DNA of 48,589 bases from a virus (lineage: Duplodnaviria > Heunggongvirae > Uroviricota > Caudoviricetes), in the IMG/VR virus record IMGVR_UViG_3300025012_000032; one strand, 5' to 3'. Both the position numbers and the translations under genes were made by a program. Shown here piece by piece: positions 5,830-40,167 of the stretch; position 1 is the stretch's first letter; each line of letters opens with the position of its first letter. The notes beneath the pieces are model-generated. The model saw nothing but the letters and a program-made list of their open reading frames with translations, did not search any database and was not told the origin of the DNA.

Positions 5830-7560
5830 ATGTTAATTACAAAAGAAGTTGAAGTTGAATTAAATTCAAAAACTATTACGTTATTTGAAAATAAAGGTTA
5901 TAATATACCAAAAATAATGAATAGGAGAAAAAAATTAATTGTAAAAAGAGGAACAAAGATTATTATAAAAGTTGAAGACTTATCTGATAAATCTATGGTT
6001 TTAGTAGACATTGAATGTGACGGATGTGGCGAGATATTAGAAAATATAGCATGGCAATTCTATAATAAATATGTAAAAGAAAATGGTAAATACTATTGTG
6101 TAAAATGCGCACAAAATGGATACAAAAAATACACTTCATTTTATGAATGGTGTTATATTAATTTATCTAAAGAAGATGCTGATTTAATAATGTTAAGATG
6201 GGATTACGAATTAAATGTTGATAAGAATGGAAAAATATTAAGTCCCCAAACCACTACTTATGGTTCTCATGGCTTAAAGGAAAGAGGGTATTGGTTTAAA
6301 TGTCTTGAGCATCCCGAACACAAATCGGAACAAAAGCGCATTAAAGACTTTACTAATGGACATGTAGGTAGTATTACTTGCAATCAATGTAATTCTATCT
6401 CAATTACTCATCCTTATTTGGTGAAATATTTAATAAATAAAGAAGATGCATTAAAGTATACAGTTTATGCAAATACAAAAATACCTATGAAATGTCCTGA
6501 ATGTGGATTTGAAAAAGAAACGTCTCTTAATACTTTAGTAAGCCAAGGGTTTGGTTGCAATAGTTGTGGAGATGGTATAAGTTACCCAGAAAAGTTTGTA
6601 GTAAATGTATTGGAACAGTTAAATAAAATTTTTAAACCCCAATTAACTAAAACAACTTTTAAGTGGTGTGGTAAATATAAATATGATAATTATATAGAAA
6701 AAATAAATTGTATTATAGAAACTCATGGAAATCAGCATTATGAAGAACGTACAACTGGTAGATGGAATAAGTCATTAAAAGAAACCCAAGAGAACGATTT
6801 CGATAAGGAATGGTTGGCTAGAAGTAATAATATTAAAAATTACATAATTTTAGATTGTAGAGAATCAGATATGAACTGGATAAAAAATAGTATTATGAAT
6901 AGTAAGTTACCTCAGTTATTAGATTTTAAAGAAAAGGATATAGATTGGTTGAAGTGTAATGAGTGGGCATGTAATAGTATGGTTAAAGAAGTTAGTAATT
7001 TGTGGAATATTGGCATAAAAAGCACATTAGAAATAAAACAAAGATTAAAATTAAGTAAGAGTTCAGTTGTAAGATATCTCAATCAAGGTGCATTGTTAGG
7101 ATGGTGTGATTATAATGGTAACGAGGAAAGAAGAAAAAGAGTATGTAAAAAAATAATATGTTTATTTAATAATGAAATATTTGAAAGTATAACCACAGCA
7201 TCTAATAAATACAATATAGAAGATAGCGATATAAGTAAATGTTGTAGCGGTAAATGTAAATCAGCAGGAATACACCCAGATACGAAAGAAAAAATGGTTT
7301 GGATGTACTATGAAGAATATATTTTAAAAACAGAAGGAGAAATTATTAAAATATTAAGTGACGCTCAAGACAAAAAAATAATATGTTTAAACGATGGAGA
7401 AATTTTCAATTCCACAATAGAAGCATCTTTAAAGTATCAAATTTCTCCATCTAGTATATCTAATTGTTGTCATCATCGTCAAAAGTCAGGAGGAATTCAT
7501 CATATTACAGGTGAAAAACTTGTATGGATGTTCTACAATGAGCATATTTTAACAATTTAG
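5830..7560 (+). CDS. Free-standing endonuclease-like protein: Zn-ribbon repeats + PD-(D/E)xK (DUF559/Vsr-like) domain + two NUMOD1-like DNA-binding repeats
   Basis: Multiple CxxC pairs; YKYDNYI...IIETHGNQHY nuclease motif; two C-terminal KKIICL..EIF.S...AS.KY.I..S.IS.CC repeats. Confidence 0.8.
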   Translation: MLITKEVEVELNSKTITLFENKGYNIPKIMNRRKKLIVKRGTKIIIKVEDLSDKSMVLVDIECDGCGEILENIAWQFYNKYVKENGKYYCVKCAQNGYKKYTSFYEWCYINLSKEDADLIMLRWDYELNVDKNGKILSPQTTTYGSHGLKERGYWFKCLEHPEHKSEQKRIKDFTNGHVGSITCNQCNSISITHPYLVKYLINKEDALKYTVYANTKIPMKCPECGFEKETSLNTLVSQGFGCNSCGDGISYPEKFVVNVLEQLNKIFKPQLTKTTFKWCGKYKYDNYIEKINCIIETHGNQHYEERTTGRWNKSLKETQENDFDKEWLARSNNIKNYIILDCRESDMNWIKNSIMNSKLPQLLDFKEKDIDWLKCNEWACNSMVKEVSNLWNIGIKSTLEIKQRLKLSKSSVVRYLNQGALLGWCDYNGNEERRKRVCKKIICLFNNEIFESITTASNKYNIEDSDISKCCSGKCKSAGIHPDTKEKMVWMYYEEYILKTEGEIIKILSDAQDKKIICLNDGEIFNSTIEASLKYQISPSSISNCCHHRQKSGGIHHITGEKLVWMFYNEHILTI

Positions 7561-13605: not shown

Positions 13606-14640
13606 ATGCTTACAGTTGGAGAAGTTGGAGATGCAATTATTGATTTTTTTATTAAACCACCATCTCCTGAAACTGTTGATAAAGTAAATGGGGCATTATT
13701 TGATGTCCCTTCTCCAGAAACCGTAGAGAGTGTTAATAATGCTTTATTTAATGCACCTACACCACATGATATTTCTACGGTTAATGGGACATTAGAACAT
13801 TTTATTACTGATTCATTAGTACAAAACTTTGCACAATTATTTCTTCATACACCAAATGTATTGGCAGAAAATCCAACAATTTTATCTTTATATTCTTTCT
13901 TTTTAAAAATAATTATTTCATTTTCATTTGCAGGAATAGTATATTTTGGAATTACGCAAATCATGAATAAAGGTAGTAAACACAAAACATCAGAATATAT
14001 TGTGAAGATAGCTCAATCAATGGTGATTATAAATATAGCAATTATAGCTTTGCCATTATTAATTGAAGCAACAAACAAATTTACTATAGCAATTCTTTCC
14101 CTTGGTGGATCTGAAGCACAAATGGTAAAAGCATTAAGTCCTCAGTATGGATTAGGATTAATAATATTCACTATAATATTCGCATTAATATTAGTTAATC
14201 TAATATGGTTCTATTTTATGAGAATGATTTCTATTATGTTTCTTATTGCAACTGCTCCTATATTCTTCTTTTTATGGTTATTTCCTAAATACCAAAACAT
14301 GAGGCAAGTTTGGATTGATGAATTATTAGACAATTTAATTGCACCAATTATCCATGCAATAATTATGGTTATCTGGTTAGGATTTGAATCATCAGTCTCA
14401 AAATCATCTCATGGAGCACTTTATCATGTAATGCTTTCTATAGCTGCTGGTTCATTTATGCTTAAAGCACCTAGTTATGTACAGCAATGGATTAGTTATG
14501 GTCATCAAAGTCCAAATCCAGTTGCCATGTTTAAAGAGATCAAGTATGGATTAAGTCCTAGAAAACTTATAGGTATTGGTGGATTTGGAAGAATGGGAGG
14601 AAGTATGCTCAGAGGAAGAGGAACTACAAGAAGGAGGTAA
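13606..14640 (+). CDS. VirB6/TrbL-like polytopic membrane protein
   Basis: Multiple TM segments; YFMRMISIMFLIATAPIFFFLWLFP...W motif. Confidence 0.75.
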   Translation: MLTVGEVGDAIIDFFIKPPSPETVDKVNGALFDVPSPETVESVNNALFNAPTPHDISTVNGTLEHFITDSLVQNFAQLFLHTPNVLAENPTILSLYSFFLKIIISFSFAGIVYFGITQIMNKGSKHKTSEYIVKIAQSMVIINIAIIALPLLIEATNKFTIAILSLGGSEAQMVKALSPQYGLGLIIFTIIFALILVNLIWFYFMRMISIMFLIATAPIFFFLWLFPKYQNMRQVWIDELLDNLIAPIIHAIIMVIWLGFESSVSKSSHGALYHVMLSIAAGSFMLKAPSYVQQWISYGHQSPNPVAMFKEIKYGLSPRKLIGIGGFGRMGGSMLRGRGTTRRR

Positions 14641-14644
14641 ATTA

Positions 14645-14992
14645 ATGTTTAATAATGAGATGTTTGAAACTAATCAAATCATTGAAATGAAAGATGAAAT
14701 ATTTTATGGACTTACAGGGAAGCAAACTATTTATTTATTAGGTGGAATAGTGATTGGTTTATCTGTATTTAATACTGCATTACCTATTATTGCAAAACTA
14801 TTCATTCTACCAAATATAGGTATTCCTACTGCAATTTTAACTAAAACTGATGTGGATCAAGGGATAGTTTCTTTCTTTAAATTTAAGTGGAGAGGAATGA
14901 CAAAACAAAATGTTACAATACAACCTTTACCCAAAAGCAAATTATCTTTTAGCAACAAAAGAAGAGCAGACACTACTTCGATCCAAGTTTAA
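14645..14992 (+). CDS. PrgI/VirB3-like membrane protein
   Basis: AGGAGG RBS before ATG 14645; IEMKDEIFYGLTGKQ followed by two TM segments. Confidence 0.75.
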   Translation: MFNNEMFETNQIIEMKDEIFYGLTGKQTIYLLGGIVIGLSVFNTALPIIAKLFILPNIGIPTAILTKTDVDQGIVSFFKFKWRGMTKQNVTIQPLPKSKLSFSNKRRADTTSIQV

Positions 14993-16418
14993 GTATTTAT
15001 TAAATTCTCTAAATGAACCATTTAAGATTATTTGTAAAACTAATTTAAATCAATTAAATAAAGACACACAAATCAATGAATCAAACTACTCTCTTATTAC
15101 TAATGCTAATATTTACGAAAATTTGCGCAATTCAGGAATAGATTATAATCAAAGCGAATTATTAATTGCAAGTAATATTCAAGTGAAAGAACATCGAAAA
15201 TATATTACTGTCACTGAAAACAATGTAAAATATTTTGCTAAATCAATTAAGATTGTTCAGTTCCCTCAGATGCTTTCTATTGGATTCATAAACAACATCA
15301 TGATTCCAGATACCGAAATAACTCTTACAATCTTTCCATTGCCACAAGAAGAGGCTGTGAAGGTAGTAAAGAAGAGAATTGATACTACTGAAGCGAATGT
15401 AAATTGGAAGGCCGTAAAGAACCCTAATCAAGAGTATTATGTAGAAGATGAAATAGTATCTAAACTTCAAAAAACTATGGTTGATTTAATGGGTAATGAA
15501 GAAAAACTTTGTATGGTTGGATTATATATCTTAATTAAAGGACAAACACTTGAACAATTGGAAACAAAAGCAAAACAAATATCAATGCTTTTAGATGGAA
15601 TGCAAATTAGATTTAAATTCGCCAATTGTGAACATTTTAATTGTTTTAAGAATTTTAGGTCATATAAAGAAATTGATTATGTAAATGAGTTAAAAGTATT
15701 TTTGACAAGTGTAATTAGTAATTTCTATCCATTTGTTAGATATGTGTCAGGGGATGGAATTATTATCGGATTTGATTATCAAAACCATCAATTAATAAAG
15801 ATTAATTTTGCAGAGCAATTCAATCTTTCATGGTTTATTTTTGGAATTTCGGGAAGTGGCAAATCATTTGCTGTGAAAAGCATTGTCAAGAAAATATCAA
15901 TTCATAAGAAGATTTATATTCTTGATATTACTGGTGAATATGCAAAATTAAAATCAAAGAATATCATTGTTATTTCTAAAGATTTTGAGAAATTCCTATT
16001 ATACACTGATTTTAAAGATTGTATGATTGTAATTGATGAAGCGTGGGATATTTTAAAAACTGATGCAGTGATTAAAAGAGTAGTATCAATTGCAAAAGGA
16101 TATAGAAAGAGAGGAGTAGGTGTATTGGTCTGCACTCAAAACATTGCTGATACAAGTAAAGATGATATTGAATTGATTATTAAAAATTGTGCTAATACTT
16201 TAATTCTTCATTTGACTTCACTAGAACTTCAACATATTAGTGAATACATGAATATACCACATCACATTGTTAATTATCTTTCTAGGATTGAAAAAGGACA
16301 AGGATGGATGGTCATAGGAACAAAGCAATATGCTTTTAGACCAATTTTTAGTGATGAAGATTATTTATTACTTAATACTAATTATGAGGAAATGAAAGGA
16401 GTTGGTTATAATGGGTGA
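14910..16418 (+). CDS. VirB4-like conjugation ATPase
   Basis: Walker A GISGSGKS, Walker B IVIDEAW and RKRG...TQN. Confidence 0.85.
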   Translation: MLQYNLYPKANYLLATKEEQTLLRSKFKYLLNSLNEPFKIICKTNLNQLNKDTQINESNYSLITNANIYENLRNSGIDYNQSELLIASNIQVKEHRKYITVTENNVKYFAKSIKIVQFPQMLSIGFINNIMIPDTEITLTIFPLPQEEAVKVVKKRIDTTEANVNWKAVKNPNQEYYVEDEIVSKLQKTMVDLMGNEEKLCMVGLYILIKGQTLEQLETKAKQISMLLDGMQIRFKFANCEHFNCFKNFRSYKEIDYVNELKVFLTSVISNFYPFVRYVSGDGIIIGFDYQNHQLIKINFAEQFNLSWFIFGISGSGKSFAVKSIVKKISIHKKIYILDITGEYAKLKSKNIIVISKDFEKFLLYTDFKDCMIVIDEAWDILKTDAVIKRVVSIAKGYRKRGVGVLVCTQNIADTSKDDIELIIKNCANTLILHLTSLELQHISEYMNIPHHIVNYLSRIEKGQGWMVIGTKQYAFRPIFSDEDYLLLNTNYEEMKGVGYNG

Positions 16419-18105
16419 GAAACTTAGCAAGATTAAAGAATTAGCTATTAAGTCAGGTAAATATTCTGCTTTATATAGTGGTAAATTTATTCTAGGTGGT
16501 CTTGGTTATGCTGTTCAAATTGCTTCAAATGGGATATTAGGGATGGGCATTCCAGATTATAAACTGCCTAATTTAAAGTTTAATTCAACTAAAAGTGATA
16601 TTGAGGACAGGGTAATTCTTTCTCCTGAAAAATTTCTGCTTAAAAAAGATGGATTGAATCTTGGTAATGATTATTATAAAGATGGCAATATCATTAGATA
16701 TCCAATAAATTGTTTTGATGATCTTTGCAAAACATGGATATATATAGGAGACCCAGGCTGTGGCAAAACAACTCTAGCTGAAAATCAAGGAATTCAAATT
16801 GCTGAAATTAATAATCTAAAGAATTTTAAAACATGTGGATTCTGTGCTATTGATGTTGCAGATGGAATGTTAATAGATAATATTATGAATGCTTTACCTG
16901 AAAGCAGATTAGAAGATGTTATATTGTTAGACTTCTCAAACAAAAAGTTTCTTCCAGGAATTAATTTATTAGAATTTGGCGAAGAAGTAGAAAAACAATT
17001 TCCTCACTTTATTCATGCTGAAATAATCTCATTTTTTAAAGGAAGATTTGGAGAACAGATAGGATTTGCAAGTGAAGATTTATTAAGTAATTCTTTAAAT
17101 GCAATTTTAAAACAAACTGATCACTCCAAAACACTTATTAGTATTATGAAAATGTTGACTGAACCTGAGTATCGAGAACAAATACTAACCTCTTTGAGAA
17201 AAAATAAGAGGAATGCTTCAACAATTAGATATTGGGAAAGATTTGAAGCACAATCTCCTTCTGTAAAAAGAGACATAATTAAACCTATGATGAACAAGGT
17301 TGGAAATTTAACTAATAATGATTATCTAAAATCTATCATATGTCAAAATCATTCCACTATTGATTTCAGAAAAATTATGGATGAAGGAAAAATACTATTA
17401 ATTAAAGCACCTAAAATTGCTGTTGGAAAACCAAATATTGAAATTCTAATTCCTTTAATATTATCTAAGTTTTGGATTTCAGCATTATCTAGATTTGATA
17501 CTAATGACAAGGATCTGAGGAGGCCATATTTTTTACTCTGTGACGAACCTCAATTCTACCTTAATTCGGCAGGTATTGAAGAAATGTTAACAGAAATGAG
17601 AAAATATAGGCTAGGACTTCACTTTTTCTTTCAGTCCCCAGAACAAACTCAGATTCAATCAGTTATTAAGATGATGTTAGAAGTTAGACCACAAATATTA
17701 TCATTTTCAATAGGTCGTGGTGGAGCACAAACATTATTCAGAGAATTTGAAACAGGTGATGATGATATTGATAGACAAAATAGATATACAATTCTTAATC
17801 TGCCAAAATATCATGCTTTATGTAGATTCTTATACAAAAGTGAAAAGAGTGTAATGTTACTTCATACCAATAATACTGCTAAACATTTACGTAAAAAAGT
17901 ACCGGATATTGTTGTTGAAAATAGTCAAAAGTATTTACGTCCAGTTGAAGAAATTCTAGATGAAATTGCAGAATATGATTATATCCCAGAACCAGACTTT
18001 ACAATTGAGGTGAACAATAATGAACAGCAAAGATTTAATGTTGAAGAAGTTGACTTTAGGAACAAAGTTTCAAGATTTAACAAACCGAGATTTAGAGATA
18101 ATTAG
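16411..18105 (+). CDS. VirD4/TraD-like coupling ATPase
   Basis: GDPGCGKT, LLCDEPQ, EMRKYRLG..FFFQ; GGAG RBS before ATG 16411. Confidence 0.85.
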   Translation: MGEKLSKIKELAIKSGKYSALYSGKFILGGLGYAVQIASNGILGMGIPDYKLPNLKFNSTKSDIEDRVILSPEKFLLKKDGLNLGNDYYKDGNIIRYPINCFDDLCKTWIYIGDPGCGKTTLAENQGIQIAEINNLKNFKTCGFCAIDVADGMLIDNIMNALPESRLEDVILLDFSNKKFLPGINLLEFGEEVEKQFPHFIHAEIISFFKGRFGEQIGFASEDLLSNSLNAILKQTDHSKTLISIMKMLTEPEYREQILTSLRKNKRNASTIRYWERFEAQSPSVKRDIIKPMMNKVGNLTNNDYLKSIICQNHSTIDFRKIMDEGKILLIKAPKIAVGKPNIEILIPLILSKFWISALSRFDTNDKDLRRPYFLLCDEPQFYLNSAGIEEMLTEMRKYRLGLHFFFQSPEQTQIQSVIKMMLEVRPQILSFSIGRGGAQTLFREFETGDDDIDRQNRYTILNLPKYHALCRFLYKSEKSVMLLHTNNTAKHLRKKVPDIVVENSQKYLRPVEEILDEIAEYDYIPEPDFTIEVNNNEQQRFNVEEVDFRNKVSRFNKPRFRDN

Positions 18106-18784
18106 AGTTGTTAGAGATTTACAAATTGTTTCAAGAAGTCAACTTCAAATTATGTTCTTTCCTACAAAGCAAAGTTTAACTATTTGTAATAGAAGATTAG
18201 CAAAAATTGAGAAATTAGGATTTATTAATAGAACCCCTATTACTTTGAATGGTGAATCTTTAATTACTGCTGGAAAATTACTTTGCCTAGCAGGAGGAAC
18301 TTATATGTCTAAATTACCATCTGATTACACTCATCAATTATTAATGAATGAAATTTATGCTTTGTTGTTCAGAGAGCAGAATTTGAATAGGATTATCATT
18401 AAGCAATACAAACCTGAATTTGTTTATAAATTTAGGGACAAGGATGAAGGAAAGCAATATATTCTAAGGTCTGATATTTTAACTGTATTAGAGAAAAATG
18501 GGATGGATACAACTCTATTATTTGAGATAGATGCAGGGACAGAAACAAAGAAACAATTAAGAGAGAAGATTAATATTTATGAAAAAGTGTCTATGAAAGT
18601 AAAGGGATTTCCTCAATTGTTTTGGTTAGCAAATGACAAGGGATTCAGAAAATTAATTAGTTTGGACAAGGTTATTAATATTGCAAAAGTAGAAGAATTG
18701 AGAGAAAACTTTTATTTATGGACAAGATATCCTGATATGAAAAGGACAAGATTAATTCCTGATATTGTTGTTTGGAAAATATAA
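18020..18784 (+). CDS. Replication-relaxation family relaxase
   Basis: LTNRDLEII...VSRSQL...RRLAKI...H.LL.NE...RSD...LFEID.GTE pattern, directly after the coupling protein. Confidence 0.8.
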   Translation: MNSKDLMLKKLTLGTKFQDLTNRDLEIIRVVRDLQIVSRSQLQIMFFPTKQSLTICNRRLAKIEKLGFINRTPITLNGESLITAGKLLCLAGGTYMSKLPSDYTHQLLMNEIYALLFREQNLNRIIIKQYKPEFVYKFRDKDEGKQYILRSDILTVLEKNGMDTTLLFEIDAGTETKKQLREKINIYEKVSMKVKGFPQLFWLANDKGFRKLISLDKVINIAKVEELRENFYLWTRYPDMKRTRLIPDIVVWKI

Positions 18785-20848: not shown

Positions 20849-21827
20849 TTATATTTTATTATTTAAACTCTCTAAAATATTTTTTATTGCTACATTAACA
20901 AATTCTTTAAATTCAATTACATTGGTAGTCCTGTATGTAATTCTCGTTATTTTAATATTATTATCTTTACAAAATTTGTTTTTAATATTGTCTTTTTTAA
21001 CTGTGTCTTGAAATTGTTTTTCTCCACCAAAATATTCAATAGGTTTTTCATGTTGCAAACCGTCTATTTCAAAAACCTTCATTACTATCAGGTAAATAAA
21101 AATCAAACCTCAATAAACTTTTATCTTTACATCCTTTAAATGTTTTCTCTGTTTCATAGTTAATATCATGTACTATTAATTCTCTTTCAAATATTTTGTT
21201 TCCATTTGATTTAGATTTAGATAGATGAGGATGTCCACAACCTCCATGTATAAAACCATCAGCAGTCGTATTAAAGATATTACTCATATCATCAGGCAAT
21301 TCTCCTTTATATACCCATTGATATTCTGTTTTAATATTATCATATTTTTTACTTATAATATCATATTCTGGTCTAAATAATTTACAATACAATTTTATAT
21401 TTTCTAATGCAAATTTATTTCTTTGTATAAAAGAAGGAATATGCCCTGCTTTTAAATTAGTTATAGAAGCTTGCACTTTAAACCCATATTTATCATAACA
21501 CCAAATTGACTTATCTACATCTTTCCAAGTATTAATATCAATAATATTTATATCATATTGATTATAAAATTCATATACTGATTCTTTTGTCCATGCTGTA
21601 ATTCCATTTTCTTCTTGGTAGCACTGTTTACACATATAACCTTTAGTGAAATTATTCCAACACACCCAATATGATTCGTGGTTGTCATTGGGACATTTTA
21701 CTAAACTCCATAATTGATTCTGATATGACTTTTCCACTCTTTTTGTTTCTAGTATTTCATACTCCTCATAACCATTAGTGCTTTTACAAAAATTATTCAT
21801 TGCTTCTAAATTCCATCTTTTTCCCAT
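20849..21827 (-). pseudogene. Zn-ribbon + DUF559-like endonuclease split by a 1-nt frameshift near 21076
   Basis: The upstream ORF ends LRFDFYLPDSN and another frame continues EVFEIDGLQH...KDNIKNKFC. Removing one G from GAAGGTTTTTGAA fuses them. Confidence 0.75.
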
Positions 21828-24896: not shown

Positions 24897-25808
24897 TTAT
24901 ATTACATTTGGAAGTGGGTTTAATTTTATGTATTCTGAGTAGTATTGCCATTGTAGTTTTTCGTTGGTGATTGGATGACGACCTGCCGATTTACATCTTC
25001 CACAAAATACGTGAGATATGTTGGATTGGTTTATTTTATATTTAATACTTGCATCTTTAATACAGTTAAAAACTTCTTTTGTATTTACACAAATTATCTT
25101 TTTTGCATTACCATTCATTTCTCCTATCCCTATTTGTTTTAATTTTCTAGTTTCGCTTATTTTTCTTCTAATTTCTTCAGGAAGATGTTTGCCATACCAA
25201 GGATTATTTTCACCACTACTTGATTTACTCATTTTTATTTTTGATTGTTCTGATATAATTTTACCTTTATGAACTTTACTTATTTGTTTCTTTCTTTCGT
25301 CTGAAAGATGTTTTCCATAAAGAGGAGATTTTCCACCTTTTAATTTACCAGTATTGGCTTTACTAATTTTTTGTTTAGTTTCTTCTAACATTTTTACACC
25401 ATAATTAGGATTGTTTTCCCCACTAACATTATAATGGTTATTACTAATCTTATCTTTTGATTCTTGTGAATGTTTTCCACTATGCCCACCATATTGTAAA
25501 TTATAATAATCTATACTCTCTACTGCATTATGATTTTTAATGAATTCTATTTCCAATTCATCTAATTCTTCTTTGGAGTATGCTATGGCTAAAATTTTTC
25601 TACTAAAGTTTTCTTTACCATAAAGTTTTAATGCTCTTTTAAAATACAACCCACTACCTAAATAATTCTGCCATCTCTTATCAAATATTTTCAATCCTAT
25701 ATATTTCATTTTATCAACATTATATTCGCTAATGTAAATAAACCCATAAGCACTCTTATCTAAGCCATTTTCCAATATGTATTCAACACTAAAAATATTC
25801 TCTTCCAC
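24897..25808 (-). CDS. GIY-YIG homing endonuclease with NUMOD3 repeats and a NUMOD1 domain
   Basis: YGFIY...YIG, YLGSG, YYN catalytic domain; repeated NP.YGKHLSEE.K..IS units. Confidence 0.9.
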   Translation of the reverse strand: MEENIFSVEYILENGLDKSAYGFIYISEYNVDKMKYIGLKIFDKRWQNYLGSGLYFKRALKLYGKENFSRKILAIAYSKEELDELEIEFIKNHNAVESIDYYNLQYGGHSGKHSQESKDKISNNHYNVSGENNPNYGVKMLEETKQKISKANTGKLKGGKSPLYGKHLSDERKKQISKVHKGKIISEQSKIKMSKSSSGENNPWYGKHLPEEIRRKISETRKLKQIGIGEMNGNAKKIICVNTKEVFNCIKDASIKYKINQSNISHVFCGRCKSAGRHPITNEKLQWQYYSEYIKLNPLPNVI

Positions 25809-25873: not shown

Positions 25874-26081
25874 CTGAACCTCTGTTTATGCAGGTTCTTA
25901 TGTACTAATGAATTTCTTTTATACTCTCATTTGCAAGTATGATATTTCATTTGCATTTTACACATACAAACACTAATCATTTTCCACAAGACTTTTACTA
26001 TCAATCCTACTATTGTAGAAATTAGCGATAGCATACGGCTCGATTCTAAACCGCTTTTGTTTTTTTGACAACTAATATATT
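25874..26081 (-). ncRNA. Putative omega/reRNA scaffold and right end of the TnpB element
   Basis: About 200 nt non-coding after tnpB, ending in hairpin GAACCT-GCATAAACAG-AGGTTC and terminal GAGGTTCAG, resembling IS607-type right ends by recall. Confidence 0.6.
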
Positions 26082-27533
26082 CTAAATTACATTCCTTAAA
26101 GCTACTGGCAGATTCAATCCCTTTAATCTCTCAATTTCAATATCATGTAATACTTTAAACTGACTAAACTTCTCAAAACATAAATCTCGATTAATTGTTT
26201 CTAAATCGTCATTCACATTCATAATTAGAAAACTTGAATACAAATCCCTCTGTATTTTAAATTCTCCAAAGTAGTTCCATCTCTCATTTAAGTCTTTCTT
26301 AATAAACTTATCATCGATATGATTATATTGACTAGCTTTTACTTTCCATGTGTCAATTTTCTTTAATCCTAAATTGTTCCATTTAAGTTTATTATCCAAT
26401 ATTGTTAAAAACATAGATGGTGCTTTATTTGCAAGAGACTTTCCAAATCGTTTCTTTTTATTTATTTTACCTGTCTTTTTGTTCTTAGTAGTTTTCTTAG
26501 TCCTTGCTTGTAATCCTTTGTAACTCATAGTTTCAACTTTTATATCATTTCCTAAAGTTAAGACATAATTAGCAAGTTTATTATGAGATTGTTTTCGTAT
26601 TTCTCTTTGCTTGCGTTGAAGTTCTTTTAATTCCATTTGAGTCTTGATGTAATGTTTTGATTTAATCCATTTACTTCTATCTTTAGTATTTATAGTGCCA
26701 TTATCATTGTATTTATTAGGATTAGTCGCTCGTCTAGACCTATCCATTTTCCTTTGCAAAACTCTCTTCTGATCTTCGATATTCTGCACTTCTGGTGCTA
26801 ATTCTAAAAGTTTAACTTCTGTGTCAGAACAAATCCCAATTGATTGAGTTCCAATATCCAAGCCTACAATTCCATCATTGATATAATGCTTAATTTCTCC
26901 AGTATTTATATCAAACTTTTGAGGAGGGATACCGTCCAATATCAACTGAACATAGTAATGGTACTTTCCTTTAATTGTTTCACGTTTAATGCGACAATAT
27001 TTAATCTTATTCCGTAAAGACAAATGAGCATAAATATCATTAGATTTAATAATTACTGGAATTTTCAAGCCTGAGAATAATACAACATTTTCTCTAAATC
27101 TAATCCCTTGTTTATTAGATTTTCCTTCGATAGAATTCAATTCTCCAAATACCTTATATTTAATTTTCTTAGCTTTATGAAATACCAACCCTTGAAAAGC
27201 ATCAAAAGCTCTCGTGGCAATCTTTTGTACAGTCATAGCATCAATCCCAAAATATTTGCCCATTGGTTTAACAAAGTCGTGTAATGAATACTCTGTTAAT
27301 TTATATTCAACATTGAGTTTATTGAATATCTTATTACGATCTTTTCCTTTATATTTACAATTTTTCTGATATGCTTTAGATTCCCTCATATGGTTATATC
27401 GTTTATGTAATTCTGATATGCAAGAATTATAAACCTTTCTGCATTTCTCAAAATTCTTATCCAAAACATCTTTTTGGAACTTTTCAGTTTGCAACGGAAG
27501 AGTTAAAACAAAATTGGACATAGTATCCACCAC
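26082..27533 (-). CDS. tnpB: TnpB family RNA-guided nuclease, IS200/605/607 type without the Cys zinc finger
   Basis: RuvC-I VGLDIG, RuvC-II IKVETM and RuvC-III IQRDLYS are all intact; helical insert DRSRRATNP. Confidence 0.88.
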   Translation of the reverse strand: MVDTMSNFVLTLPLQTEKFQKDVLDKNFEKCRKVYNSCISELHKRYNHMRESKAYQKNCKYKGKDRNKIFNKLNVEYKLTEYSLHDFVKPMGKYFGIDAMTVQKIATRAFDAFQGLVFHKAKKIKYKVFGELNSIEGKSNKQGIRFRENVVLFSGLKIPVIIKSNDIYAHLSLRNKIKYCRIKRETIKGKYHYYVQLILDGIPPQKFDINTGEIKHYINDGIVGLDIGTQSIGICSDTEVKLLELAPEVQNIEDQKRVLQRKMDRSRRATNPNKYNDNGTINTKDRSKWIKSKHYIKTQMELKELQRKQREIRKQSHNKLANYVLTLGNDIKVETMSYKGLQARTKKTTKNKKTGKINKKKRFGKSLANKAPSMFLTILDNKLKWNNLGLKKIDTWKVKASQYNHIDDKFIKKDLNERWNYFGEFKIQRDLYSSFLIMNVNDDLETINRDLCFEKFSQFKVLHDIEIERLKGLNLPVALRNVI

Positions 27534-27613
27534 CTTTCTATTAATATCAATCCTTTGTAAAAGAGTTAATAACTTAATCTTGATTATTTATGTATTATAC
27601 AATTCATAACTAA

Positions 27614-28987
27614 TCAACTAACCTTCTTATCCTTAAACTTACTCATCATCTTCAATTGCTCCACAATAATACTATCAATCATTGGAATACTAATATTTTT
27701 AGCAGCGTTTATATCCGCGTTTTCTTCATGTCCACATGTAACACATTTAAACTTAGCTTGATTACCTTTACAGTTTCTATTCTCATCATCAATACATCCA
27801 CAATGACTACATCTTTTGCTTGTGTATTTTGGGTCAATGAGTACAAATTTTATACCATTTTCTTCACATTTATATTGGATCTTTGTTTGTAAGTCATGAT
27901 ATGCCCAATTCTTCAAAAACTTCTCTGATTGCTGTTCAGAAAATCCACTTAAATTTTCCATTTGAATTGTCGCACAATTATGTTTAATTGCAAATTCTAT
28001 TATGTATTTGCTAACTTTATGGTTATATGTATCTTTGAATCTTGCTACTTTATCTCCAATATCATTAAACGGTTTCATTCTAGTGTTTCTACCATGGCCT
28101 ATCCTACCATCACCAACTATTTTACTAGCTTTTTGAATTTGTCTTTTTCTAGCATTTAATTTATTTCTAAACTGTGATATTTCTTTACCATTAATTACAC
28201 TTTTATTCCAAGATAATTTATCCCATTTTTCTGTACTCATATCAAATACTTGCATTACTGCTGTATTAACTAGTCCTAAATCAATTCCTAGAATTTTATT
28301 CGTGTTCAATTCTAGTGCAACAGGTTCAAAAGAGTAACTAATTGTTAAATACCATTTGCCACTTTTCTTTTTATCTTCAATGATTTGCATTGCCCCTTGC
28401 TTATAAATACCAGACATAATCTTATTTAAGATGGATTTTTGACTAGATCCTAAACTTTCAATAGTGAAATTAACTCTTTTTACATTATTTTCTTGTTGAT
28501 ATGGCGTACTAAATAAACTGCACATAACTTCAAATCCCTTTGTATTAATATTTATTTTAAAGTTATTGTTTTTTATGATTATGGGCGTACTTAGTCTAAA
28601 ATTTGATACTCCTACTTTCCCTTTGAATACTCCTTTCTTTTTATCATCACTAAATCTTTTAGAAACGAATTGATATGCTTGAGCAACATTTCCACTATTA
28701 TGAGATACCATAACTTCATTCATTCTGTTTTGTATCCAAGCTCCATGAGTTTTACCAAATCTTTCACGTTCATTTATATTTACACCATTTAATTCTTTAT
28801 GCTCCGTATTTTCCATAGAAAATGTATAAAAATAAGTCATTGCTTTATTGAACGCTAACCATGATTGATATCTCAAATCACTAAGTATTTTTCTATAATC
28901 TAATACTTTTTTTGTATCACTTTCTTTATCACAATATTCATTACAATTCTTTATTTCAATTTTTACACATTCATTCATTTGTATCAT
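27614..28987 (-). CDS. cas12f: Cas12f1 (type V-F) effector, AsCas12f1-like (likely start 28978)
   Basis: ILGIDLG, IQMENL, NADINAAKNI and CSHCG/CVTCG are intact. Segments such as KWYLTISYSFEP, GHGRNTRMKP, FLKNWAYHDLQTKI and IDPKYTSKRC closely echo AsCas12f1 as recalled. Adjacent repeats and tracrRNA distinguish it from plain TnpB. Confidence 0.88.
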   Translation of the reverse strand: MIQMNECVKIEIKNCNEYCDKESDTKKVLDYRKILSDLRYQSWLAFNKAMTYFYTFSMENTEHKELNGVNINERERFGKTHGAWIQNRMNEVMVSHNSGNVAQAYQFVSKRFSDDKKKGVFKGKVGVSNFRLSTPIIIKNNNFKININTKGFEVMCSLFSTPYQQENNVKRVNFTIESLGSSQKSILNKIMSGIYKQGAMQIIEDKKKSGKWYLTISYSFEPVALELNTNKILGIDLGLVNTAVMQVFDMSTEKWDKLSWNKSVINGKEISQFRNKLNARKRQIQKASKIVGDGRIGHGRNTRMKPFNDIGDKVARFKDTYNHKVSKYIIEFAIKHNCATIQMENLSGFSEQQSEKFLKNWAYHDLQTKIQYKCEENGIKFVLIDPKYTSKRCSHCGCIDDENRNCKGNQAKFKCVTCGHEENADINAAKNISIPMIDSIIVEQLKMMSKFKDKKVS

Positions 28988-29105
28988 CCTTTTTAAGTTA
29001 ATAATTTATATTTTAATTTATAATATTATAAAAATCATGATTTTAGTAAATTTATCCTATTAGGCATACACAAGAGTTGTATAACCAAAATCGTAAGATG
29101 GTCAG

Positions 29106-29267
29106 ACTTACATCTTATACACATATACAAGTTATAATCCTAATATGTCAGCAAGGATATATCAGTTTCCATTTACATCTTATACGCACACACAAGTTGT
29201 AACATGATGTTGGATATATTAGACAGGATACATTGCTTACATCTTATACGCACATACGAATTGTAAC
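29106..29267 (-). CRISPR. CRISPR mini-array: three 33-nt repeats, two spacers (31 and 32 nt), plus a degenerate trailing repeat at about 29050-29085
   Basis: Repeats at 29235-29267, 29171-29203 and 29106-29138; minus-strand consensus GTTACAAYTYGTRTGTGCGTATAAGATGTAARY; period 64-65 bp. Confidence 0.85.
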
Positions 29268-29329
29268 AGCATCCCCTACAATTCAGTCACACCAACCATT
29301 ACAACCAACTAAAGTGCGAACCTATTCAA

Positions 29330-29555
29330 TTATTACAATTTGTGTATATACGTATAAGAGTCTGGACGGAATTTGTGCCAGAGTTTCAATGGGTGCGAAA
29401 TACCTAGTGACTTTATGTATGCTTTACGTTCGCATTACTCCCATTACCTTACGAGTGTTATTCACAACCTAATAAATAAGGTATTATGAACACTTCTCGA
29501 TTTTAGGCCAAGTTGTTAAAAACAACTAAAGGAATACCTTTCTAAGATGGCCTTT
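29330..29555 (-). ncRNA. tracrRNA for Cas12f
   Basis: Anti-repeat at 29332-29362. Ordered motifs CGAGAAGTG (29491-99), TAACACTCGTAAGGTA (29445-60), TGAAACTC (29381-88) and GCACAAA (29372-78) parallel the recalled AsCas12f1 tracrRNA. 5' stem AGGCCA/TGGCCT. Confidence 0.8.
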
Positions 29556-29652
29556 TATTTAAAGAATGATTGTGAACTTAATAATTTATTTATGTATTTA
29601 TAAACATTTATTATCACCAACTTTTATTTATTTATATCTTCAACCTATAATC

Positions 29653-29681
29653 AGTTTACCATAAGTGGAAATGCCTGTCAA
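29653..29681 (-). promoter_or_regulatory. Sigma-A promoter upstream of tracrRNA/array
   Basis: TTGACA-17 bp-TAAACT with TG extension. Confidence 0.7.
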
Positions 29682-29849
29682 GTTTTATTTGAAATATTTA
29701 TTTCTTGCTTTAACATCCATTATTTCCTCACCTCACTTTCTACTCTCTCTCATCATACCACTAGCAAATAATGTTTGTCAAGTATAATTTTATTTTTATA
29801 TTCATAAGAAAAAGAGATAGAGGAAAGGGAATTTTACTTCCCTAGTCAA

Positions 29850-30167: not shown

Positions 30168-30314
30168 CTATTCCCTCTCATTAGTCTCCTTTTCTTTCCT
30201 TCTTCTCTCTAATTCTCTCATAATAACTCTAGCCGATGCCTCCTTATATAATCTCTCACCTTCTGCAACACTTTCAGGATCATATCTATAACTTCTAGTA
30301 ATTTCTACTATCAT
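30168..30314 (-). CDS. 48-aa charged peptide
   Basis: ATG overlaps the TGA of the 30311-30691 gene (ATGA coupling). Confidence 0.5.
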   Translation of the reverse strand: MIVEITRSYRYDPESVAEGERLYKEASARVIMRELERRRKEKETNERE

Positions 30315-30691
30315 ATTTTATATCCCTTCCACTCATCCCTAATATTTCCATTTTTATCATAAAAATCCCCATTAATCCCATCTACCTCATCTACATCACC
30401 CCAAGGCCCATAAGTACCAAACTCATTCATCATATCAATAACTTCATTAAAACTATACTCCTTAATAACTTTTGCATTAAACAAAGCATTATACACAACA
30501 ATAGGAAAATCTTTTTCATGTACTGCATCTCTGATAATATCATCTTTTATACACCAAGCATGGTCAATCGTTTGAAATGGTGGATATAAATTAGTAATAG
30601 TTCCATGAACTAACTTATAGTCATGATTTGATAATATAAATTGCAAACTTAATTCATAGCATTTTCCAATTTTATCTTGATTAATTACCAT
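30311..30691 (-). CDS. Hypothetical protein (GKCYE...LVHG...HAW motif)
   Basis: 126 aa ORF with GAGG RBS. Confidence 0.7.
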   Translation of the reverse strand: MVINQDKIGKCYELSLQFILSNHDYKLVHGTITNLYPPFQTIDHAWCIKDDIIRDAVHEKDFPIVVYNALFNAKVIKEYSFNEVIDMMNEFGTYGPWGDVDEVDGINGDFYDKNGNIRDEWKGYKI

Positions 30692-38614: not shown

Positions 38615-39073
38615 CTATTTTGAGTCAGAATTATCTGTTTGAGTAATTATGCCACTATCATTTTTTGAATCGCTTGGAAGGCTTGTATTTTGTGATTTTT
38701 CTAATATAGTTGATGTAGTTTCTACTATATTTTTCTTATTAAACAAATCAACAGTAAAACTTGACCCTTTGCTTGCTAAAAATCCTGTGACTGCAATATC
38801 AACAATCCAATAAAGCACATCATATCCTATTTTAAATTGACTTATTAAATCAACAAAATTATGAGCAGGAACAAAACCAAGAGGTTGTAAAATACTAGTT
38901 CCTGTAACCAAAGATAAAATCATAGCAATAATTACGCTAGCTCTTTGAGTATTTTTGTCAGAAATCACTTCTTTGTATACCTGTGTGATCCCAAGGGTTA
39001 GAGTACTAAGCATCATAAAACTTTGTAATGCAGTTGCAATATCCATATTTATTTTTCCTCCTTTAAAATACAA
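38615..39073 (-). CDS. Putative holin
   Basis: Three TM segments, GFLASKGSSF..DL motif and a hydrophilic tail; located in the lysis cassette. Confidence 0.65.
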   Translation of the reverse strand: MYFKGGKINMDIATALQSFMMLSTLTLGITQVYKEVISDKNTQRASVIIAMILSLVTGTSILQPLGFVPAHNFVDLISQFKIGYDVLYWIVDIAVTGFLASKGSSFTVDLFNKKNIVETTSTILEKSQNTSLPSDSKNDSGIITQTDNSDSK

Positions 39074-40167
39074 AAATCACTCTCTTGGAGTGATAATTCT
39101 TTTAATAATATTTCTTCTACTCTATTAATATCCCAATACCAAATTTCTAGAAAATTATATCCATTATTTAGTGCATATTCTTTCTTTCTGCGATCATGCT
39201 CCTTTTGTTTAATTAATCTTGCTTCCGCTAATTCTATTGGTTCATTTTTGTATTTTAATATAACTTGATCATGATATTCTCCCTGAACTTCGATGAGTAA
39301 TTTTTTTCTAGGTATATAGAAATCATAAGATAATAACCCACCAGACATACCTATTAAACCATCAAATGTTATTTGATAAGTATATGACTCATCAGTGCCA
39401 ATTAAATATTCTGATACCATAACTTCATATTGCGAAGCATTATTACATTCTGGACATCTGAAATTATAGACATTTGAATTAGAAATACTTCTCAGATAAT
39501 CTTCGTGTTTTCCGTTTGGGCATTTCCACCATACTTCTTTATTGCTAAACTGAAAATATTCAAATGGTGACTTATTATTTTTATCAGACCATATAGTTAT
39601 AACTTCAGGACGCAAAAAACCAACTGACTTACATTGTTTACAAATTATATCTACGTTCATACTAGTAAACAAATATAAACTTTTTAATTCGCTAGTATGT
39701 ATTTCTTTTGGACATTTAAAATAATATTCTGTTTCAGTATTACAATTAACTTCACTTGGTTTAAGTTTATTTAATTTATAATCCCATCTGCCTAATACGT
39801 CCTGACGATTATTTTCTAAACACCATTGTTCAAAAGATTTACCTTTAAGTAATAAAGTTTTTCTGCAAGTTTCACGACCATATAATTTCATAGCACATTT
39901 TTGACAATAATATTTACCATCTTCTTTAATACTCTTTTGATAATCCACCCATGCTAATTGTTTTTCTTCACCACAATTATCACATTTCACATCTACTTTC
40001 ACCCTAGTGCCATTTGGTAAATCATTAACATTAACTAAAATTTTTGTTCCTCTTTTTACCACTATTTGACCTTGTTTATTTTTATATCTAGGAATTTTAT
40101 AACCTAAATTTTCATAATATTTTATATTTGTCATTAATCCAACTTCTATTTCTTTTGTAATTAACAT
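39049..40167 (-). CDS. Zn-ribbon + DUF559-like endonuclease, paralogue of 5830-7560
   Basis: Same MLITKE.EV.L N terminus; WWKCPNGKH...CPEC; LSYDFYIP...IEVQGEYH...HDRRKKEY. Confidence 0.8.
   Translation of the reverse strand: MLITKEIEVGLMTNIKYYENLGYKIPRYKNKQGQIVVKRGTKILVNVNDLPNGTRVKVDVKCDNCGEEKQLAWVDYQKSIKEDGKYYCQKCAMKLYGRETCRKTLLLKGKSFEQWCLENNRQDVLGRWDYKLNKLKPSEVNCNTETEYYFKCPKEIHTSELKSLYLFTSMNVDIICKQCKSVGFLRPEVITIWSDKNNKSPFEYFQFSNKEVWWKCPNGKHEDYLRSISNSNVYNFRCPECNNASQYEVMVSEYLIGTDESYTYQITFDGLIGMSGGLLSYDFYIPRKKLLIEVQGEYHDQVILKYKNEPIELAEARLIKQKEHDRRKKEYALNNGYNFLEIWYWDINRVEEILLKELSLQESDFCILKEEK

Follow-up and report, generated by a model that had tools for sequence, protein, structure and literature searches.

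We analysed a 48,589-nucleotide (nt) stretch of viral DNA (IMG/VR record IMGVR_UViG_3300025012_000032, hereafter the window, in whose numbering all positions are given unless marked otherwise) and find that it carries what is probably a genuine type V-F1 CRISPR-Cas12f module of the AsCas12f1 class. We put at about 0.82 the probability that a large phage or phage-plasmid, SPbeta/c-st-like in character, of a Clostridiaceae-like groundwater Firmicute carries this module and uses it to exclude rival elements. Read on the minus strand from 29800 to 27614, the locus comprises two promoters, an AT-rich leader, a conserved non-coding stretch (29555-29296), three repeats, a decayed fourth repeat and an open reading frame (ORF, 28987-27614). 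A preliminary description of this DNA had named a promoter, a trans-activating CRISPR RNA (tracrRNA), a mini-array and a compact nuclease gene, and every one of these elements was found where it had been placed or close by. The features are as follows.

29781-29752, minus strand: upstream sigma-70-like promoter, TTGACA-18-TATGAT with a TG extension, 11/12 matches, also present in relative L004
29681-29653, minus strand: downstream sigma-70-like promoter, TTGACA-17-TAAACT with a TG extension, 10/12 matches, identical in relatives L003 and L004
29331..29555, minus strand: predicted tracrRNA core, 224 nt, matching covariance model R1 with 230 bits
29542..29546, minus strand: candidate short anti-repeat CUUAG in the stem-1 loop, pairing with the repeat end (G)UAAG
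29331..29362, minus strand: long anti-repeat, which complements the initial ~30 nt of each repeat
29296..29330, minus strand: conserved tail AATTGAATAG-GTTCGCACTTTA... between the anti-repeat and the array, kept in 13/15 homologues
29236..29267, minus strand: repeat 1, 32 nt, or 33 nt if 29235 is counted
29204..29235, minus strand: spacer 1, matching the serine recombinase gene of a contig assigned to a temperate myovirus
29172..29203, minus strand: repeat 2, a good repeat
29139..29171, minus strand: spacer 2, no target found
29107..29138, minus strand: repeat 3, more diverged and with weaker anti-repeat pairing
29075..29106, minus strand: spacer 3, 21-32 nt according to the start assumed for the decayed repeat, with a probable match to the same myovirus
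29045..29085, minus strand: decayed fourth repeat, beginning at about 29085 or 29074 and overlapping the 3' part of spacer 3, so that its boundary is ambiguous
27614..28978, minus strand: cas12f, 454 amino acids (aa) from the second ATG, or 457 aa from 28987

The second ATG, at 28978, is the likeliest start of cas12f because the homologues all begin MN(E/K)C and a Shine-Dalgarno sequence fits this position. The RuvC protein of some 454-457 aa that had been described, with three catalytic acids and both Cys pairs, is borne out by comparison: the RuvC residues D236, E344 and D425 and the zinc-ribbon cysteines C393, C396, C415 and C418 (457-aa numbering) are invariant among 18 homologues, and both the D-E-D triad and the CCCC zinc ribbon align with the AsCas12f1 motifs. 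The supposed parallel with AsCas12f1 proved to be a full-length one. A phmmer search of the PDB returned the AsCas12f1 structures 8J12, 7WJU and 8DZJ (E 1e-86, residues 31-446), then 9NZQ (3e-73), 9I8Y (3e-61) and other Cas12f entries down to 1e-25, whereas entries deposited as TnpB or transposase ranked far lower. The protein also matches the Pfam Cas12f1-like_TNB domain (3e-22). The ratio of non-synonymous to synonymous substitution rates (dN/dS) is 0.08-0.23 against seven relatives and 0.08 against the relative with 93% identity, values that indicate purifying selection on cas12f.

In a library of 5.8 billion proteins we found 444 relatives at E <= 1e-20, many of them named 'transposase' and coming from Clostridium species, their plasmids and metagenomes. 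Among the 89 loci fetched, nearly every relative above ~30% identity has an array no more than 1.5 kb away; for more distant TnpB-like proteins this is hardly ever the case. The maximum-likelihood tree of 81 proteins places the cas12f product in a clade of 49 (support 100/97), 43 of which have an adjoining array; within this clade it falls in a Clostridiaceae-rich subclade, and the array-less TnpB clades lie outside. Clustering with transposon TnpBs was thus not found by either homology search or tree, and the comparison supports a Cas12f1 of the AsCas12f1 class belonging to the CRISPR-associated clade rather than to a transposon TnpB clade.

Among relatives from IMG/VR and metagenomes the non-coding stretch upstream of the array is strongly conserved, although their proteins share only 57-94% identity with that of the window. 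A covariance model (R1) built from eight sequences finds the RNA adjoining cas12f at ~30 loci, always on the gene strand; the order is tracrRNA, array, cas12f in the subclade of the window and cas12f, tracrRNA, array in more distant relatives. The core begins with stem 1, which has two inner hairpins, followed by a CGAGAAGUG/CUCG stem with a GAA bulge and by GUAAGGUA; a UGCGAA/UUCGCA stem, UGAAACUC, a CUGG..CCAG hairpin, GAC and the long anti-repeat complete it. When 34 sequences were aligned to the model, 92.7% of cells were paired, compared with 32-48% when the partners were slid by 1-3 columns, and 25 of the 35 pairs changed on both sides (137 doubly changed cells versus 13-47 in the slid controls). 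Since this alignment was fitted to the model, the covariation figures lean toward it; the margin is nonetheless large, and compensatory changes were already seen in plain MAFFT alignments. Register shifts in a plain MAFFT alignment of 15 sequences made RNAalifold collapse, a problem that the alignment based on the covariance model resolved. The single-sequence fold of the region is not significant (z -1.4), and no Rfam family matches it.

The repeats pair with the anti-repeat much more strongly than chance would allow: repeats 1, 2 and 3 form duplexes of -29.2, -28.4 and -20.7 kcal/mol, against approximately -15, -15 and -13 kcal/mol for the corresponding shuffled repeats (standard deviation ~2); the decayed fourth repeat does not pair. 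The RNA of about 225 nt with an anti-repeat that had been proposed here therefore has its counterpart in a 224-nt structured RNA with covariation and an anti-repeat at 29362-29331, and on these comparative grounds we take it to be a tracrRNA with a long anti-repeat. The tail that follows may be either the tracrRNA 3' end or the array leader.

Comparison with the known RNA of AsCas12f1 points the same way. The AsCas12f1 single-guide RNA (sgRNA) scaffold (bioRxiv 10.1101/2022.10.20.513037) shares with the window, in the same order, CGAGAAGTG, CTCG(G)TAAGGTA, TGAAACTC, GCACAAA..CCG and a GAC before the anti-repeat, so that CGAGAAGUG, CUCG(G)UAAGGUA and UGAAACUC are motifs common to the two guide RNAs. 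The window RNA differs in its longer stem 1, with the two inner hairpins, and in the UGCGAA/UUCGCA stem that replaces a short GCC..GGC hairpin of AsCas12f1. The stem-1 loop of the AsCas12f1 RNA, GUUCA, lies opposite the repeat end UGAAC, and the short duplex they form is essential (PMC11246509); the equivalent in the window would be CUUA:UAAG. The stem-1 loop is conserved as CTTAG or CTTAA in 15 homologues, and the repeats of the family end in GTAAG. The second module of L005 has CTTG in the tracrRNA loop together with the repeat end GCAAG, one compensatory change and the sole case found. The CUUAG/(G)UAAG pairing comprises 4-5 bp compared with the 5-7 bp described for AsCas12f1 (PMC11246509), and a short anti-repeat pseudoknot is likely. 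L005, a Bacillota metagenome-assembled genome (MAG), carries tracrRNA-plus-array modules on both sides of its cas12f (L005:7422-7934 and L005:9384-9723), and the repeats of the two differ.

The repeats of the window are spaced 64-65 nt apart. The three 33-nt repeats and two spacers of the preliminary description have to be amended in part: there are three repeats of 32-33 nt, and the decayed fourth repeat brings the number of spacers to three. Between relatives the repeats are conserved and the spacers differ. L086, whose protein is 93% identical, has four repeats with wholly different spacers, and contigs from a second sample, although fragmentary, join the array repeat to other spacers; arrays in this lineage therefore turn over faster than the gene diverges, without an adaptation module. 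No Cas1, Cas2 or Cas4 Pfam domain was detected in any window ORF of at least 90 aa, as had been claimed, and three related IMG/VR records, among them a 138-kb one with terminal repeats, yielded no Cas1 either. This is normal rather than special, as the Cas12f branch is generally associated with arrays only and usually lacks adaptation genes (PMC10691335).

The suggestion that the system is used against competitors gained support from natural protospacers on a co-occurring temperate phage. A metagenome scan with 22 nt of spacer 1 matched a 37-kb contig from a JGI sample that also contains the relatives L001, L003 and L087, and the protospacer lies inside a large serine recombinase gene, not in an array. 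Six protospacers were found in all, every one of them on the same phage and distributed over both DNA strands. Spacer 1 of the window matches at 24/24 positions from position 2 and 29/32 overall (5' flank TATC, E 2.6e-9), and its spacer 3 at 15/15 (positions 3-17) and ~25/30 overall (5' flank TTTC). The others are L001 spacer 1 (21/21, 5' flank TGTC, E 1.2e-7), a spacer of L003 (33/36 with a 2-nt indel, 5' flank TTTC), L004 spacer 2 (17/18, 5' flank TTTC) and L091 spacer 3 (16/16, 26/31 overall, 5' flank ATTC). A 20-fold shuffled-spacer control gave a best E of 2e-4, for a 16-nt match. Four of the matches are secure, and those of window spacer 3 and L004 spacer 2 are probable; the 15-nt core of window spacer 3 taken alone is near the noise of the shuffled spacers, and its extension and flank raise the confidence.

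The target contigs together encode a tyrosine integrase, the large serine recombinase, cI/Cro-like helix-turn-helix (HTH) proteins, an endolysin and a YomX-like protein, together with the structural genes for terminase, SPP1-type portal, Mu F-like protein, capsid, tail sheath and tail chaperone. This gene content identifies the target, as far as annotation goes, as a temperate myovirus of the same groundwater community, and near-identical target contigs from other assemblies overlap at 99.7% identity. Protospacers are located within the integrase and recombinase genes or next to them. The arrays of the window and its four relatives, all five from a single groundwater community, are aimed at one temperate phage, and the spacer matches support inter-phage warfare as the probable use of the module. 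Apart from the type of endolysin and a 122-nt stretch, target and window have little in common. This stretch (L095:6061-6182 in the target, 30200-30319 in the window) contains a small ORF and is 85% identical, and the Amidase_3 endolysins of target and carrier are 55% identical; both likenesses hint that target and carrier share a host.

All six flanks have TC at positions -2/-1 (6/6; background TC frequency 0.056, P ~3e-8 for one register), the signature of a 5' protospacer adjacent motif (PAM) that is expected for a Cas12. The flanks predict a PAM of 5'-(T)NTC, unlike the NTTR of AsCas12f1. The AsCas12f1 PAM-contact residues H72, Y76, S92 and K96 correspond by alignment (bioRxiv 10.1101/2023.07.03.547593) to H, Q, A and Q in the window protein, so that H72 is kept and Y76, S92 and K96 are replaced, and a flank other than NTTR fits this change of three of the four contact residues.

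Other searches with the spacers were negative: spacers 1 and 2 have no significant match in GenBank phages, and exact-word scans of IMG/VR with parts of both returned nothing. A 19-nt likeness of spacer 2 to L036 was rejected as chance, its PAM-proximal part being unmatched. Spacers 1 and 2 share CT(A/G)ATATATCC at 10/11 nt, for which the probability of chance was estimated at a few per cent. No common target of this motif was found, and reading both spacers in the recombinase frame gave no convincing protein similarity.

Taken together, these data suggest the following mode of action for a system that is real and probably working. One or two sigma-70-type promoters would produce a transcript running in one direction through the ~225-nt tracrRNA, the three-spacer mini-array and cas12f. 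After processing of this RNA, each repeat would pair with the tracrRNA through the long repeat:anti-repeat duplex of ~30 bp, and CUUA(G) in the stem-1 loop probably also pairs with the repeat end (G)UAAG in the short pseudoknot. A Cas12f dimer would bind this dual RNA and cut double-stranded DNA that matches approximately the first 20 nt of a spacer beside a 5' (T)NTC PAM. The presumed benefit to the carrier lies in the targets, which would be rival mobile elements: the element would exclude or destroy a myovirus competitor, whether superinfecting or present as a resident prophage. As the module has no adaptation genes, new spacers must come from outside it.

One conceivable outside source is the type I-B adaptation machinery of the host, which might refill the mini-arrays, the PAM of the effector having evolved to match the spacer-capture preference of the host. 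The idea is prompted by the wholly different spacers of close relatives and by the flanks, which with the next base read TCT, TCA, TCC, TCC, TCT and TCA and thus equal the TCN-type PAMs that are functional in the type I-B systems of clostridia, TTTCA and TATCT of C. pasteurianum (PMC4860712) among them. We consider it unlikely and advance it tentatively. In the one MAG with both a Cas1-linked array and a Cas12f array the repeats of the two differ, which gives the idea no support there. If true, it would amount to a cross-type supply of spacers to a viral CRISPR system.

The TTGACA/TAAACT promoter of the preliminary description is present at 29681-29653, with 17-nt spacing and a predicted transcription start near 29646, and it would presumably drive transcription of the module. 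The upstream promoter at 29781-29752 is the better scoring of the two; it may serve the tracrRNA or just the 11-codon ORF downstream of it. Overall, the promoter scan showed no enrichment over shuffles (14 found versus 17 expected), and what makes both promoters credible is their score and their conservation in L003 and L004. No intrinsic terminator was predicted across 29800-27614. The 11-codon ORF (MDVKARNKYFK, 29685-29720, minus strand) lies between the two promoters, is also present in L004 and is preceded by a strong Shine-Dalgarno-like GAGGTGAGGAAA.

The carrier is fairly described as a phage or phage-plasmid on the basis of its gene content. Phage-type genes of the window encode topoisomerase II subunits, ThyX, a deoxynucleoside monophosphate kinase, an Amidase_3 endolysin and giant tail-like proteins, and the N-terminus of a 1111-aa protein matches phage c-st and SPbeta-like phages. 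Also encoded are a DnaD-like initiator and plasmid-like products: a ParM-like partition protein, the T4SS-like pair of a PrgI-like protein and a VirB4/HerA-like ATPase, and the relaxase-like Replic_Relax. No capsid or portal gene was found in the window, nor was a terminase seen for the carrier. When 22 kb of the window was searched for near-identical DNA among GenBank phages and PLSDB plasmids, nothing was found; IMG/VR does hold relatives of the carrier, and in related phages the cas12f locus is syntenic. The PrgI-like protein, the VirB4/HerA-like ATPase, a 567-aa protein of an unknown PHROG and Replic_Relax lie together at 14576-18784 in an otherwise phage-like genome. The best full-length match of the ATPase is gp155 of jumbo phage G, whereas the match to plasmid VirB4 covers the P-loop part only.

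Behind cas12f, starting 80 nt away, lies an ORF (26082-27533, minus strand) for a TnpB-like protein of 483 aa (NF040570, 88 bits), in which candidate RuvC D/E/D motifs are kept and the zinc-ribbon cysteines are absent. A segment of ~1.7 kb (25874-27601) is missing from the syntenic site of L003 and L001, which makes the TnpB-like gene a separate insertion that does not belong to the Cas12f module. The window also contains at least four homing endonucleases of the HNH or GIY-YIG type (5830-7560, 21069-21827, 24897-25808 and 39049-40167), one of which is encoded immediately past the TnpB-like insertion.

Several observations weigh against a working phage-borne defence module. The three repeats differ from one another at 4-6 positions, the third pairs worse and the fourth is dead, which together look like an array that is not being renewed. 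In L003, the closest IMG/VR relative (94% identical), cas12f is split into three frames (L003:6007-7382), which shows that the module can decay. Over its full length no spacer is a perfect match to its protospacer, the first base after the repeat is mismatched in three of the six matches, and spacer 2 has no target in anything searched (GenBank phages, IMG/VR exact words and the myovirus). The first-base mismatch may be either a base of a 33-nt repeat or the result of seed escape mutations. The PAM of AsCas12f1 cannot be carried over to this protein, and the motif put forward is based on six sites. The sequence, which comes from a groundwater metagenome, was found in DNA runs only. As for the carrier, the ParM-like, PrgI/VirB4-like and Replic_Relax genes leave its description as a phage unproven, and Pfam searches for HK97 capsid, sheath and Terminase_6C were negative in the three related IMG/VR records. 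At L003:5611-5642, the 3' half of a repeat is fused straight to the tracrRNA in place of the conserved tail that follows the anti-repeat; this fusion and the split gene of L003 reflect either decay or an assembly error.

On these grounds the module could be a decaying relic, inherited and unused, with a frozen and drifting array whose matches are fossils of old conflicts. The heterogeneous repeats, the mismatches in every protospacer match, the frameshifted gene and replaced tracrRNA tail of L003 and the lack of adaptation genes would all fit such a relic. It is nevertheless quite unlikely, as strong purifying selection acts on an intact cas12f, compensatory changes accompany the conservation of the tracrRNA, the promoter is conserved as well, and close relatives with entirely different spacers imply that arrays turn over; moreover, the first 20-24 nt of spacer 1, the guide length that Cas12f uses, match perfectly, and the target phage lives in the same samples. 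The matches could also be read as those of a host-directed weapon, in which the target would be a resident prophage that is cut in order to damage or reprogramme the host through chromosome breakage or prophage killing or induction. This is a variant of, rather than a contradiction to, the exclusion of rival elements that we prefer, and we regard it as improbable: the target is evidently temperate, with its integrase, recombinase and cI/Cro-like proteins, and the protospacers sit at the integrase and recombinase genes, but no bacterial flank was found on the target contigs within the ~30 kb seen, and the target contig ends near the integrase, as expected of a free or circular phage genome.

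A different objection concerns the identity of the nuclease, which could be a transposon-type TnpB with an omega-RNA-like guide serving the mobility or retention of an insertion sequence (IS). The ancestral fold of RuvC and zinc ribbon is indeed common to the window protein and the TnpB of IS200/IS605 elements, the best NCBIfam model is the generic 'guided_TnpB' subfamily (180 bits), the homologues bear the name 'transposase' in databases and a TnpB-like gene lies directly behind cas12f. Against this, Pfam and PHROG scans of the window ORFs revealed no TnpA-like protein, and in place of a 3' omega RNA the guide is encoded upstream and split into a tracrRNA and a spacer-bearing array that would supply the CRISPR RNA (crRNA). 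The protein belongs to an array-associated clade apart from the array-less TnpBs, the locus occupies a fixed site that is syntenic in related phages, and the adjoining TnpB-like gene is the separate insertion that the relatives lack. This explanation is highly improbable, and a CRISPR-Cas12f module directed at rival mobile elements remains the reading that we favour.

By every criterion testable here the system is assigned to type V-F1 and to the class of AsCas12f1 from Acidibacillus sulfuroxidans, with which it shares the size class, full-length homology, D-E-D triad and CCCC zinc ribbon. It differs from the latter in the order tracrRNA, array, cas12f, in its phage-like carrier and in its natural protospacers, which are flanked by (T)NTC rather than NTTR. 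The Firmicute Cas12f1 systems represented by PDB 9NZQ, 9I8Y and 8HR5 are of the same family (E 3e-73 to 5e-32), and other Firmicute Cas12f1 systems, both bacterial and phage-borne, likewise have short arrays and no adaptation genes. The window array is upstream of the gene, whereas most relatives, and likewise the Cas12 literature (PMC10691335), place it downstream. The same array-then-gene layout occurs in two cultured phages, Alicyclobacillus phage MMB025 (L103, PV686781) and Bacillus phage Mgbh1 (L104, KU665491), which have an array of 2-3 repeats directly upstream of homologues of 433-447 aa annotated as 'transposase'. The MMB025 array is annotated as CRISPR in its record. Protein identity between systems of this type and the window is just 36-48%, and model R1 detects no tracrRNA in MMB025 or Mgbh1.

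Cas12j/CasPhi, Cas-lambda and the virus-borne mini-arrays employed in competition between viruses (PMC11656645, PMC12607003, PMC11748809) resemble the window in combining, on a large phage, a compact effector with a short array, no cas1/2 and spacers aimed at other mobile genetic elements (MGEs). Cas12j, however, belongs to another Cas12 branch and processes its own crRNA without a tracrRNA, whereas the effector here is a predicted Cas12f1, a class that depends on a tracrRNA. V-F systems are enriched on plasmids (PMC9071438; reviewed in PMC11656645), their spacers target phages and plasmids (PMC10691335), and Cas12f/Cas14-like effectors occur in large phages (PMC12607003, PMC11748809). MGE-borne V-F systems are thus already documented, and the module is not a new principle.

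What the locus adds to these is a comparatively defined tracrRNA family, the less common upstream position of the array, a coherent set of natural targets and a predicted PAM other than NTTR. The potential as a new editing orthologue that had been raised for this DNA stands insofar as the protein is a natural, intact, 454-aa orthologue of the AsCas12f1 class and hence a candidate compact editor; its novelty is reduced by the MGE-borne V-F systems already known. The probable (T)NTC PAM could give the smallest Cas12f editors a broader choice of target sites. The tracrRNA model R1, together with the layout of the 'transposase'-labelled loci of MMB025 and Mgbh1, should aid the re-annotation of related loci. 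For the biology of these elements, the locus and its relatives offer one of the clearer natural pictures of how a phage-borne CRISPR mini-system is used.

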